Source of the DNA: a virus
Taxonomy: Duplodnaviria; Heunggongvirae; Uroviricota; Caudoviricetes
Length of the DNA: 23,570 nt
Direction: 5' to 3' (one strand)
Virus record (IMG/VR): IMGVR_UViG_2563366944_000005
The notes beneath the pieces are model-generated. The model did no database searches. It saw only the letters and a list, made by a program, of their open reading frames with translations, and had not been told where the DNA came from. Made by a program: the position numbers and the translations under genes. The first letter of the stretch is position 1; every line of letters begins with the position of its first letter. Positions 12,606 to 13,500 of the stretch are shown here, in pieces.

Positions 12606-12640
12606 TGAAAATAAAAACAAAAACCCGCCGAAGCGGGTTA
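12606..12640 (-). terminator. rho-independent terminator downstream of hokD (end of the relB-relE-hokD transcript)
   Basis: AACCCGC-cgaa-GCGGGTT hairpin followed on the minus strand by TTTTTGTTTTTATTTT. Confidence 0.65.
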
Positions 12641-12707
12641 AGTGCGGGTGCGTTGAGGATGCCTGCCACATCAGAGGTGGCGAGGGATTTCTCCCCCGCC
12701 GGGTCTC

Positions 12708-12863
12708 TTACTCCTCAGGTTCGTAAGCTGTGAAGACAGCGACCTCCGTCTGGCCGGTTCGGATTCGTACCTCGCAGAGGTCTTTCCTCGTTACCAGTGC
12801 CGTCACTATGACGGTTAAACAGATGACGATCAGGGCGATTAACATCGCCTTTTGCTGCTTCAT
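12708..12863 (-). CDS. hokD: Hok-family type I toxin (51 aa)
   Basis: Hand translation MKQQKAMLIALIVICLTVIVTALVTRKDLCEVRIRTGQTEVAVFTAYEPEE; 156 nt including stop; not in track (under 60 aa). Confidence 0.85.
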   Translation of the reverse strand: MKQQKAMLIALIVICLTVIVTALVTRKDLCEVRIRTGQTEVAVFTAYEPEE

Positions 12864-12934
12864 AGCCTGCTTCTCCTGTCAACGCAAAGCAGAAGTGTCA
12901 CCTTCGGTGCGAAACAGAGATGTCATGCTTTGGT

Positions 12935-13222
12935 TCAGAGAATGCGTTTGACCGCCTCGCTATATACTTCCGAGCGTTCTCTTTTCCCAACAGAAATCAC
13001 GAAAACGACAACTTTCTCGTCTATAACCTGGTATACAAGGCGATAGCCTGAAGACCGGAGCTTAATCTTGTAACAATCAGGCATACCACGGAGCTTGTTT
13101 GCTTCAATCCGGGGTGACTCAAGTACTTCAACCAGCTTCTTTTTCAACTGTTCACGTACCGTCGAGCCCAGCTTTCGCCATTCCTTTAGTGCCCGCTCGT
13201 CAAAATCCAGAAAATACGCCAT
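12935..13222 (-). CDS. relE: RelE mRNA interferase toxin (95 aa)
   Basis: Track ORF MAYFLDFDERALKEWRKLGSTVREQLKKKLVEVLESPRIEANKLRGMPDCYKIKLRSSGYRLVYQVIDEKVVVFVISVGKRERSEVY...; ATGA overlap with relB stop. Confidence 0.9.
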   Translation of the reverse strand: MAYFLDFDERALKEWRKLGSTVREQLKKKLVEVLESPRIEANKLRGMPDCYKIKLRSSGYRLVYQVIDEKVVVFVISVGKRERSEVYSEAVKRIL

Positions 13223-13461
13223 CAGAGTTCATCCAGCGTCACACGTACTGGCTTAGGATTACGAAGCCGTTCTTTCACTATCTCCACAAGTTCAGCATCT
13301 TCATCACTCAGGAGTGTCTGTTTGAACGGCAAGCGTTCATTGTCAGCGATATACTCGAGCATGAGACGAAGCGCTTCAGAAGGAGTTACACCCATTTTTT
13401 CAAGCGCGGCGTAAGAACGCGCTTTAAGTTCATCGTCAATACGCAGGTTAATGCTACCCAT
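13222..13461 (-). CDS. relB: RelB antitoxin (79 aa)
   Basis: Track ORF MGSINLRIDDELKARSYAALEKMGVTPSEALRLMLEYIADNERLPFKQTLLSDEDAELVEIVKERLRNPKPVRVTLDEL. Confidence 0.9.
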   Translation of the reverse strand: MGSINLRIDDELKARSYAALEKMGVTPSEALRLMLEYIADNERLPFKQTLLSDEDAELVEIVKERLRNPKPVRVTLDEL

Positions 13462-13469
13462 GTCTTACA

Positions 13470-13500
13470 CCTCTTGTAATTACAAATGTCATTACAAGTA
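13470..13500 (-). promoter_or_regulatory. relBE promoter/operator (relO-like dyad)
   Basis: cTTGTAATTACAAatgtcATTACAAg: palindromic TGTAATTACA plus a repeated TTACAA half-site immediately upstream of relB. Confidence 0.6.

Follow-up and report, generated by a model that had tools for sequence, protein, structure and literature searches.

The relBEF operon of a Qin-like prophage as a probable junction between an IS1202-family transposon and a split hok/sok module

relBEF and the systems closest to it

The relBEF operon of the Qin cryptic prophage of Escherichia coli K-12 has been studied since 1985, and the absence of sok and mok from its third gene, hokD (relF), was reported in 1999. In K-12, a single full-length transcript is seen whether the probe is for relB, relE or relF (hokD); its induction is lost once the relBEF promoter is deleted, and of the fragments that toxin-induced cleavage leaves, the relF portion is the most plentiful (PMC3598666). 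The co-transcription is also credited to Bech 1985 and Gotfredsen & Gerdes 1998 (PMC3598666; PMC5120126). With respect to origin, another report states that relBE had 'integrated' into hokD from plasmids and names no vehicle (PMC6379469, citing Ramisetty & Santhosh 2016). Other chromosomal hok loci of K-12, namely hokA, hokC and hokE, are described as disturbed by insertion elements in a further study (PMC12214031, citing Pedersen & Gerdes 1999).

The insertion sequences that matter for comparison are those of the IS1202 family, where members of the ISTde1 subgroup produce 15-17-bp repeats, have TGT ends and in some cases carry passenger genes (bioRxiv 10.1101/2022.12.17.520857). Target specificity is known in this family for XerC/D (dif-like) sites, only in the subgroup with 5-6-bp duplications. 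Among transposons of the Tn3 family, toxin-antitoxin pairs are carried as integral parts.

The locus considered here lies within a window of 23,570 nucleotides of viral DNA (Caudoviricetes; IMG/VR record IMGVR_UViG_2563366944_000005) and represents the relBEF operon carried by a Qin-like lambdoid prophage. Over 1.1 kb, its sequence agrees at 100% identity with the relB/relE/hokD annotated in E. coli K-12 MG1655 and in numerous further strains, with relB, relE, hokD, the 71-nt gap and the terminator all unchanged from the Qin copy, and it is carried by 1,162 of the 5,426 complete E. coli genomes (at a coverage of at least 80%). The preliminary description had read the locus as a relBE pair followed by a hok toxin lacking mok and sok and expressed from the same transcript; both this co-transcription and the loss of mok/sok control at hokD are already published, such that the observation as stated adds nothing new. 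What the surrounding anatomy provides is a mechanistic reason for the presence of relF/hokD in the relB operon and for its absent antisense control.

All features below lie on the minus strand, with the exception of flxA. The open reading frames and a Pfam profile search give the order relB (13461-13222; 79 amino acids; PF04221, 112 bits; 100% identical to annotated relB), relE (13222-12935; 95 amino acids; PF05016, 51 bits; matching annotated relE) and hokD (12863-12708; 51 amino acids; PF01848, 83 bits; matching annotated hokD). A RelB-family antitoxin gene thus stands upstream of, and tightly coupled to, a gene for a RelE/ParE-fold toxin, as in type II toxin-antitoxin systems, and the hokD product is a peptide of the Hok/Gef family of membrane toxins. 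The 4-nt ATGA overlap earlier ascribed to relB and relE was in error, the two genes sharing the single base 13222 (...CTC TGATG GCG...). The remaining landmarks were correctly placed: the 71-nt gap extends from the relE stop codon to the hokD ATG (12934-12864), a palindromic operator precedes relB, and a terminator, formerly given as 12606-12640, closes the operon. An inverted-arm search locates the relO-type operator, which immediately precedes relB in the promoter region of relBE, at 13473-13498, with 12-nt arms (13473-13484 and 13487-13498) that are 92% complementary and share a perfect TTGTAA/TTACAA core; that RelB/RelE bind there and autorepress is known from published work on an identical sequence (PMC3598666). 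The intrinsic terminator of the hok mRNA, now that of relBEF, occupies 12606-12639 as a stem-loop of seven pairs (12639-12622) followed by a T-run to about 12606, and the same hairpin recurs in the predicted fold of an intact hok locus, L002. Between it and hokD, the 3' untranslated region holds an fbi element, CCTCAACGCACCC (12646-12658, read from the sequence), which is complementary to a tac element, GGGTGCTTGAGG, located elsewhere in the window. A promoter and terminator scan of 12450-13750 returned one promoter-like site, downstream of the terminator, and the known terminator only; the relBE promoter itself was not picked up by this simple consensus scan, and its activity rests on the literature (PMC3598666).

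A transposon between the hok leader and hokD

The reason for the unusual position of hokD becomes apparent upstream of relBE. Positions 12877-16150 are delimited as a transposon of the IS1202 family, 3,274 bp in length, by terminal inverted repeats and a 15-bp duplication, and this DNA is missing from otherwise collinear empty sites. The element comprises a left inverted repeat (IRL), a transposase gene, cargo (flxA and the 5' part of ydfV), relB-relE and a right inverted repeat (IRR). The transposase (14763-16076; 437 amino acids) is of the ISNCY/IS1202 family, matching NF033594 (transpos_ISNCY_2) at 456 bits relative to a cut-off of 250, with helix-turn-helix (HTH) and rve_3 domains; one copy bears the RefSeq label 'IS1202-like element ISEsa1 family transposase'. 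Compared to Shigella and plasmid copies, that of the window has a 9-amino-acid in-frame deletion in its N-terminal HTH region, and hence, as judged from the sequence, this copy of the transposon may be immobile; an undeleted transposase is present in the Shigella copy, of 3,301 bp, and in plasmid copies of 4.6-6.1 kb. The passenger flxA (13994-14326, plus strand; PF14282) belongs to the E. coli version of the transposon, the cargo of other versions consisting of different genes.

IRL (16125-16150) reads TGTTAACACCAAGCTGTAATGTCCCC, and 24 bp inward lies another GGGGACAT repeat. IRR (12877-12902) ends in ...GCGTTGACA and has a subterminal GTGACAC/ATGACAT repeat reaching about 12927. Aligned from their termini, IRL (TGTTAACACC...) and IRR (TGTCAACGCA...) are imperfect repeats that match at 19 of 26 positions, and both start with TGT. 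The 15-bp target-site duplication, GGAGAAGCAGGCTAT, is an exact direct repeat found at 12862-12876 on the right and 16151-16165 on the left. Transposase type, TGT-starting imperfect inverted repeats and exact 15-bp duplication place the element with the IS1202 (ISNCY) subgroup that generates 15-17-bp duplications. A candidate internal right repeat just after the transposase gene, which would have delimited a 1.6-kb insertion sequence next to independent relBE DNA, was sought and set aside as no convincing inverted repeat occurs there; homology of the left module ends at a 26-bp palindrome.

The right copy of the duplication contains the hok Shine-Dalgarno motif GGAG together with the AT of the hokD ATG. 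The 71-nt gap accordingly consists of 58 nt of transposon end and 13 nt of duplicated target, and the hok ribosome-binding site, coding sequence, fbi and terminator (12876-12606) all lie to the right of the transposon end. On its other side, a separated hok mRNA leader occupies 16151-16321 and matches the full Rfam sok model (RF01794, positions 1-157; 104 bits). The leader includes tac (16321-16310), an upstream start codon equivalent to that of mok (16209-16207, from reading-frame analysis) and the sokT/sok region. It ends ...GGCTAT, one base short of the complete hok ATG, and its homology to intact loci stops at 16151. In an intact locus, the corresponding in-frame ATG stands 19 codons before hok. 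The hok and sok promoters were not found in a scan of the leader at the thresholds used, and both are placed by homology and from the literature. The preliminary account of a bare hok gene therefore stands for the operon, which holds neither mok nor sok, but not for the prophage, given that the mok/sok leader is still present 3.3 kb upstream (16321-16151).

Uninterrupted hok loci exist in other E. coli. With L002, positions 4826-5016 correspond to 16341-16151 of the window and 5001-10278 to 12877-7600, whereas with L003, 4624-5271 correspond to 16797-16151 and 5256-5519 to 12877-12613; in each, 16 bases match both junctions, representing the 15-bp duplication and one adjacent base. In L002, a sok match of 118 bits directly precedes hokD, and RNA folding predicts that the 5' and 3' ends pair in the closed tac-fbi form (minimum free energy, -176 kcal/mol; z = -8.0), a pairing that forms only in the uninterrupted locus.

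Very probably, then, relBEF is a transposon-target junction, at which insertion of an IS1202-family element split an intact prophage hok/sok module and brought hokD behind relBE. For this account, the anatomy, duplication, inverted repeats, empty sites and recurrence were read from the DNA, and co-transcription and relBE regulation were taken from published work. The ancestral prophage would have held a complete type I module (promoter, tac, mok start, sokT/sok, hok, fbi and terminator) into which a transposon composed of left repeat, transposase, exchangeable cargo, relB-relE and right repeat inserted and duplicated 15 bp, with the sok promoter region on one side of it and the hok start codon on the other. 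The last gene pair before the right repeat, relBE, faces outward with no terminator ahead of that repeat, and the duplication left the hok Shine-Dalgarno and start codon on the downstream side; this would make hokD the third cistron of the transcript, using the old hok terminator. The requirements for Sok and the mok start that drives hok translation would have remained beyond the transposon, which would explain why hokD lacks mok/sok and lies outside antisense control. While hokA, hokC and hokE share with hokD a disturbance by insertion elements, the insertion at hokD lies inside the locus, between regulator and toxin, and brings a new promoter rather than disruption alone.

The alternative that the 15-bp repeat and inverted ends arose by coincidence, and that relBE arrived by illegitimate or homologous recombination, would accord with the earlier statement of an integration from plasmids by an unnamed vehicle (PMC6379469), but we consider it extremely improbable. 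The probability that two fixed junctions would share an exact 15-bp repeat by chance is about 4^-15, and the length of the repeat is within the 15-17 bp typical of the ISTde1 subgroup. The same ends are also found at unrelated sites with their own internally matching duplications (CCAGGCGGTACAGTAT and TACCAAAACAAGCCCC), as is a relative with a diverged right repeat (CATTAAGCTGCAAAT), and the duplications in different hok loci are in different registers, which homologous recombination between hok loci cannot yield.

Following the transposition, a 4.8-kb microhomology-mediated deletion removed the leader from K-12, along with most of the transposase gene. The window keeps the corresponding segment (14948-19746), and with it the full transposase, the left inverted repeat and the separated hok leader; in K-12 the segment is gone, the deletion junction shows GGAG(G/C)CTA microhomology, and ydfW is the C-terminal remnant of the transposase. 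It is because of this deletion that hokD looked merely 'truncated' in K-12. On the transposition account, relBE, a model 'chromosomal' toxin-antitoxin system, would be transposon cargo.

Control of hokD after the split

Expression of hokD as the third cistron of the relBE transcript, as put forward in the preliminary description, is borne out by the published experiments on the identical K-12 locus (PMC3598666, PMC5120126), and its lack of mok/sok control of its own likewise agrees with published work. The only match to the sok model in the window is the leader at 16321-16151, outside the relBEF transcript; the upstream start ATG is parted from hokD by the transposon and no mok frame is coupled to it; and fbi (12658-12646) and tac (16321-16310) are on different transcripts. 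What remains resembles a hok/sok type I module in its Hok-family peptide, Shine-Dalgarno motif, 3' fbi and terminator, and in a leader that fits the Rfam model end to end, but 3.27 kb separates the two halves of the module, with the hok half on a foreign, protein-repressed promoter and devoid of mok start, sokT and tac. hokD is now outside antisense control.

A promoter or cis-antisense regulator of hokD hidden in or near the 71-nt gap is highly improbable. Its one point of support is a residual transcript seen with relE and relF probes in the promoter-deletion strain, which its authors blame on a promoter created by the deletion (PMC3598666). No promoter-like site was found on either strand of the gap, nor was there a sok-like or other RNA-family match over it or any complementarity to sok; across 12500-13600, the sok search gave no match even at E<=10, and a permissive Rfam scan gave sub-threshold matches only, unrelated to sok. 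Moreover, the gap is right inverted repeat and duplicated target, and since the same 58 nt adjoin unrelated flanks in other genomes, it is not a hok regulatory region.

Repression in trans, by Sok from the separated leader or from other hok/sok loci in the genome, is less credible still. The leader does keep the whole Rfam-modelled region, and the sok promoter presumably lies just upstream of the duplication, by homology to that of plasmid R1. However, beyond the 15-nt duplication the leader has no sequence in common with the relBEF mRNA, and by the same homology we take that duplication to lie outside the Sok transcript. No antisense match between them is longer than 9 nt, and hokD is kept in K-12 although the leader is wholly gone.

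Under the transposition account, the level of relBEF transcription would be set, as the literature indicates, by RelB/RelE autorepression at relO and derepression upon RelB degradation, and translation of hokD would have to begin at its own ribosome-binding site. The relE-hokD junction RNA was folded to ask whether the right inverted repeat hides this site, and the predicted hairpin was no better than that of shuffled sequence (z = -0.56). Canonical hok translation depends on that of mok, the start of which is not in the relBEF transcript.

We infer, tentatively, that translation yields HokD in amounts that matter to the cell. That hokD is instead a dead relic, riding on the relBE transcript untranslated or non-toxic in a two-toxin arrangement without function, is the less probable view, though a serious one. 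The mok start on which hok translation normally depends lies at a distance of 3.3 kb, chromosomal hok loci except hokB have been described as inactivated by IS elements or rearrangements, and the second cysteine of HokD, of the disulfide essential to HokB toxicity, is not encoded in the DNA and needs A-to-I editing of a Tyr codon, found in only about 6% of hokD transcripts (PMC12214031). Deletion variants that join the right repeat to mid-hokD sequence (L201-type flank) also suggest that hokD is dispensable. Against this, the hokD open reading frame, Shine-Dalgarno, 3' untranslated region and terminator are 99-100% conserved across over a thousand genomes, the overexpressed coding sequence is toxic (bioRxiv 10.1101/2025.08.07.668861), and the relF part of the mRNA is the fragment noted above to be most abundant after cleavage (PMC3598666). 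The anatomy also raises a caution: relBE deletion strains, including the multi-toxin-antitoxin deletion strains of persistence work, also alter hokD expression.

Related elements and hok loci as targets

Elsewhere, the right module recurs at 99% identity joined to transposase modules of about 90% identity and to different cargo. The smallest such element seen, of 2.26 kb, consists of transposase and relBE, and forms of 3.3-7.7 kb contain exchangeable cargo. The relBE right end is found in Enterobacter, Citrobacter, Kluyvera, Leclercia, Pantoea and others, and in every case an exact duplication particular to that copy accompanies it. The elements with both ends present account for 15 distinct duplications, mostly of 15-16 bp with a few shorter (10-14 bp). 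Simple IS relatives of 1.36-1.45 kb with 15-17-bp duplications are closed by the same IRR consensus; that of Hahella, of 1,449 bp, is present in at least 12 copies with 15-17-bp duplications and the same inverted-repeat consensus. A flxA fragment in strain ECZP248 (L004) showed no clear duplication.

At least nine independent insertions into other hok loci, all at this one spot and located on prophages or large plasmids, are due to relatives of the element that share its relBE right end. IncHI2-type plasmids occur both with an intact hok/sok locus and with one that relBE interrupts. Such insertion polymorphism on plasmids, together with the empty sites L002 and L003, constitutes the comparative evidence bearing on mobility. 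From these comparisons we lean towards the view that E. coli relBE may be the conserved right-end module of an IS1202-family transposon that prefers hok initiation regions and repeatedly creates relB-relE-hok operons, rather than a free-standing chromosomal toxin-antitoxin locus. Insertion would occur in one orientation in the hok translation-initiation region, where a GGCAA motif at the base of the leader hairpin would directly precede the insertion point. Each such event would sever hok from sok/mok and place it behind the RelB/RelE-repressed promoter, and relB-relE-hok operons would thus have been made repeatedly, through those same nine or more events, on prophages and hundreds of large conjugative plasmids. 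The classic relBEF would then be one instance of a general process by which a type II system captures a type I toxin. A description of either the transposon vehicle or the hok target preference was not found in the literature that could be searched.

Like the IS1202 family (ISTde1 subgroup; ISEsa1) and transporter IS such as ISKpn21, the element of the window has an HTH and DDE transposase, TGT termini, a duplication within 15-17 bp and passenger genes between transposase and right repeat. It differs from them in its toxin-antitoxin operon, which is directed outward through the right repeat, and, for elements of this type, in an apparent strong preference for the hok translation-initiation region; ISEsa1, unlike it, is listed as 1,609 bp without detectable duplication. 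If hok targeting holds, the family would gain a new case of target-specific transposition, and plasmids and prophages would have a natural means for one addiction module to rewire another. The Tn3-family transposons are similar in having a type II pair as a conserved component, but their transposase is of another family and the pair is at another position; we know of no reported fusion of theirs with a target toxin gene. At one plasmid copy (H163/L085), the context has been scrambled by IS26 and ISSen3.

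Operon architecture and published transcripts

The relB-relE-hokD operon lies on the minus strand and consists of relB (13461-13222; 79 aa; Pfam RelB, 112 bits), relE (13222-12935; 95 aa; Pfam ParE/RelE toxin, 51 bits), and hokD (12863-12708; 51 aa; Pfam Hok/Gef, 83 bits). The preliminary description had relB and relE overlapping by ATGA; only one base is common to the two genes (TGATG). Its observation is otherwise confirmed: the 71 nt separating the relE stop from the hokD ATG agree with the ORF coordinates, the palindromic operator corresponds to a palindrome with 12-nt arms just 5' of relB (13473-13498), and the terminator following hokD to a 7-bp stem-loop with a T-run (12639 to approximately 12606). 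The check that it had proposed for the 71-nt gap was made on both strands; a promoter scan returned no promoter-like site there, and a permissive Rfam scan detected no sok-like RNA in the gap or elsewhere in 12500-13600.

The proposal that hokD is the third cistron of the relBE mRNA is supported by published K-12 transcripts, and hence is not new. A single full-length transcript of identical sequence was seen with probes for relB, relE, and relF (hokD), and deletion of the relBEF promoter abolished its induction (PMC3598666). Passages of two papers (PMC3598666; PMC5120126) credit the co-transcription to Bech 1985 and Gotfredsen and Gerdes 1998. The earlier finding as written is thus correct and already known; what is added here is its cause, a transposon insertion with the separated leader still preserved. 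Over 1.1 kb, the sequence matches the annotated relB, relE, and hokD of Escherichia coli K-12 MG1655 at 100% identity, as it does in many other strains; among 5,426 complete E. coli genomes, 1,162 carry the region (at least 80% coverage). The prophage represented by the window is lambdoid and Qin-like, carrying cspB/cspF/cspI-type thermoregulators, DicF, and dicA/dicC; two cspA-type thermoregulator leaders (8912-9304 and 6017-6402; 159 and 113 bits) and the DicF sRNA (21773-21824; 77 bits) are ordinary features of such prophages.

A transposon between hokD and its leader

Unexpectedly, a scan of the whole window matched 16321-16151, on the strand of the operon, to the sok/hok-leader family of Rfam over its full length (104 bits; gathering score 59). 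The absence of mok and sok from the operon, as first described, is borne out, with the leader residing at this separate position instead. The leader ends in ...GGAGAAGCAGGCTAT, followed directly by TGTTAACACC..., while the sequence upstream of hokD reads ...GCGTTGACA|GGAGAAGCAGGCTATG; the 15-mer constitutes an exact direct repeat (12862-12876 and 16151-16165). In other E. coli genomes, near-identical homology to hokD begins at window position 12877 and homology to the leader ends at 16151. The 3,274-bp insert between the repeats (12877-16150) starts with TGTTAACACCAAGCTGTAATGTCCCC and ends with the reverse complement of TGTCAACGCAAAGCAGAAGTGTCACC, these termini matching at 19 of 26 positions with TGT at both ends. 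It encodes a 437-aa transposase (16076-14763; NCBIfam ISNCY_2, 456 bits), followed by flxA and ydfV on the opposite strand and, last, the outward-pointing relB-relE. The 26-bp right inverted repeat (IR) begins 32 nt past the relE stop, and the 71-nt gap is thus composed of 58 nt of transposon end and 13 nt of duplicated target. The duplication includes the hok ribosome-binding site (GGAG) and the first two bases of the ATG. With tac on the leader side (16321-16310) and its complementary element fbi on the hokD side (12658-12646), the two reside on different transcripts in the window; sequence comparison leaves the relBEF mRNA and the leader with just the 15-nt duplication in common. The upstream in-frame start that gives the '70-codon' ORF is located at 16209-16207.

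Two uninterrupted hok loci were fetched as controls, L002 (strain 720632) and L003 (strain EC2). Positions 4826-5016 and 5001-10278 of L002 correspond to window 16341-16151 and 12877-7600, and positions 4624-5271 and 5256-5519 of L003 to window 16797-16151 and 12877-12613; each has 16 bases in common with both junctions. Directly 5' of hokD, L002 gives an Rfam sok match of 118 bits. Described hok mRNAs adopt a closed form in which tac pairs with fbi, and the predicted fold of the L002 mRNA (~417 nt) agrees with it, joining the 5' tac to the 3' fbi (-176 kcal/mol; z = -8).

In the window, the hok coding half, complete with ribosome-binding site, fbi, and terminator, is positioned directly 3' of the outward-reading relBE, with neither terminator nor promoter between them. 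The relBE promoter produces a single relB-relE-hokD mRNA; RelB/RelE autorepress this promoter, and starvation or other toxins induce it; a hokD-containing 3' fragment builds up after cleavage of this mRNA (PMC3598666). Translation of HokD, if any, would proceed from its own ribosome-binding site, free of both mok coupling and Sok control. The second cysteine of hokD needs A-to-I editing, found in ~6% of transcripts (PMC12214031), and the overexpressed coding sequence is toxic (bioRxiv 10.1101/2025.08.07.668861). A 55-codon ORF (12715-12882, minus strand) overlaps hokD in another frame, starting from a TTG within the right IR; it has no recognizable ribosome-binding site and is probably meaningless. 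The hokD 3' UTR and terminator (12618-12699, minus strand) also give a sub-threshold Rfam match to the Salmonella sRNA IsrK (25 bits against a gathering score of 50; E = 0.0045).

Loss of the leader in K-12, and relatives of the element

A passage of one review has plasmid-derived relBE integrating into an ancestral 70-codon hokD ORF (PMC6379469, citing Ramisetty and Santhosh, 2016). K-12 MG1655 lacks window 14948-19746 (4.8 kb), a stretch with the greater part of the transposase, the hok leader, and several prophage genes, among them ORFs of 339, 173, 140, and 118 aa. The microhomology GGAG(G/C)CTA at the K-12 junction (ydfX'/ydfW) identifies this as a deletion in K-12 rather than an insertion in the window. 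Lost with it were the left IR, ~85% of the transposase (the remnant being ydfW), and the leader, and therefore only a 'truncated' hokD is visible in K-12. The transposase-leader junction is complete in ~785 complete E. coli genomes, compared with ~1,200 carrying relBE (at least 80% coverage for relBE).

A search with the transposase, confined to one genome per species, yielded 79 loci. The simple relatives are ISs of 1.36-1.45 kb, found in Hahella (at least 12 copies) and in Chromatiales; they share the IR consensus and have 15-17-bp duplications, which establishes 12877-12902 as a genuine right IR of the family. In one subgroup of the IS1202 family, the duplications are described as 15-17 bp long and the ends as TGT, and passenger genes are carried by some members of the family (bioRxiv 10.1101/2022.12.17.520857). 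Enterobacterial elements combine a left module (window 16150 to ~14568; ~90% identity) with a right module (window 13589-12877, comprising the relBE promoter, relB, relE, and the right IR; 99% identity), and have variable cargo between them. Their lengths are 2,261, 3,274, 3,301, 4,487, 4,600, 4,901, 5,822, 6,093, 7,320, and 7,694 bp, and their duplications are mostly exact at 15-16 bp, a few being shorter. The 2,261-bp copy, at the hokD site of one viral/metagenome locus, matches the size expected for the two modules without cargo, a minimal transposase-plus-relBE element. RefSeq names one copy of the transposase ISEsa1, an element recorded at 1,609 bp, for which no target duplication is detectable (PMC10132070). 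This listed length is that of the conserved left module, and the reference ISEsa1 may be part of a longer element with its real right end beyond relBE. Relative to Shigella flexneri and plasmid copies, the window transposase lacks nine residues (ESINRHITQ; 16013-16040) by an in-frame deletion in its HTH region, and consequently this copy may be immobile; in the sampled prophage copies, the 3,274- and 3,301-bp lengths occur about equally often.

Cargo includes a cytochrome b561 and CDF cation-efflux pair, LysR-type cassettes, and secondary IS110- and IS30-family insertions, and is delimited by two 26-bp palindromes, TGTCCGCT-N10-AGCGGACA (window 14560-14585 and 13566-13589; also L007, L009, L017, and L024). 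In several plasmid copies, IS110-/IS30-family elements sit within these palindromes. In E. coli ECZP248 (L004), positions 4001-5016 equal window 14586-13570 at 99% identity, representing the flxA cargo alone next to the pao operon; the segment runs almost exactly from palindrome to palindrome, with no transposase, relBE, or obvious target duplication. A distant relative in Scandinavium hiltneri (L037 9275-10020), its transposase module ~70% identical at the DNA level, has a TacA-like antitoxin and GNAT toxin near the right end in place of relBE; a toxin-antitoxin pair at this end may be a recurring feature of the group. In L017, the transposon is located in isrO-like sequence (59 bits, Rfam).

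Recurrent insertion at hok loci

The left IR lies exactly at the end of the Rfam sok model in five more loci (L006, L010, L013, L024, and L039), and Pfam-verified Hok ORFs begin just past the right IR in L007, L010, L013, and L024. Searching viral and metagenome contigs for exact matches to the terminal 20 nt of the right IR added 162 loci. Pooled, there were 43 distinct right flanks, ~25-28 being start regions of the hok family (a pndA-type gene and a leader with hok already replaced among them) and ~13-15 other sequences. Both ends were present for 15 distinct duplications, 12 of which follow a hok leader; as four of these are point variants of the hokD event, they represent ~9 independent events. 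The duplications differ in register (GGAGAAGCAGGCTAT, GGAGAAGAAGGCCAT, GGAGAAGAAGCCATG, GATATGCTGACAAA, GATGTTAGCCATG, GGAGATGTATGGGTCC, and others), a difference that homologous recombination between hok loci could not produce. Orientation is identical at all loci with both ends; at L020, which has a left end only, the element faces the other way within a hok start region.

Most duplications, whether at hok targets, at other targets, or in the Hahella copies, are preceded by a GGCAA-like motif (GTCAA and TGCAA also occur). Given how short it is, the motif alone does not explain the bias to hok, which may come either from additional recognition of the leader hairpin or from selection acting once the element has inserted. 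In PLSDB, the relB-relE-IRR-hok junction is found on 451 plasmids (at least 80% coverage), the majority being large and conjugative, from Salmonella, Escherichia, Enterobacter, and Klebsiella; on other PLSDB plasmids, homology to the same hok begins exactly at the duplication. Repeated insertion of a relBE-carrying IS1202-family element at hok loci is apparently undescribed; its novelty is uncertain, and Pedersen and Gerdes (1999) or Ramisetty and Santhosh (2016) may overlap with it.

At L021 (7527-7538) and in the right flanks of L230 and L238, a second, related element begins with its left IR immediately after the right IR and duplication of the first, so that one hok site contains two insertions in tandem. 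In the L201-type flank (four contigs), the right IR is joined to mid-hokD coding sequence (...CTGCGAGGTACGAATCC...), a structure suggestive of a neighboring deletion that took away the 5' half of the gene.
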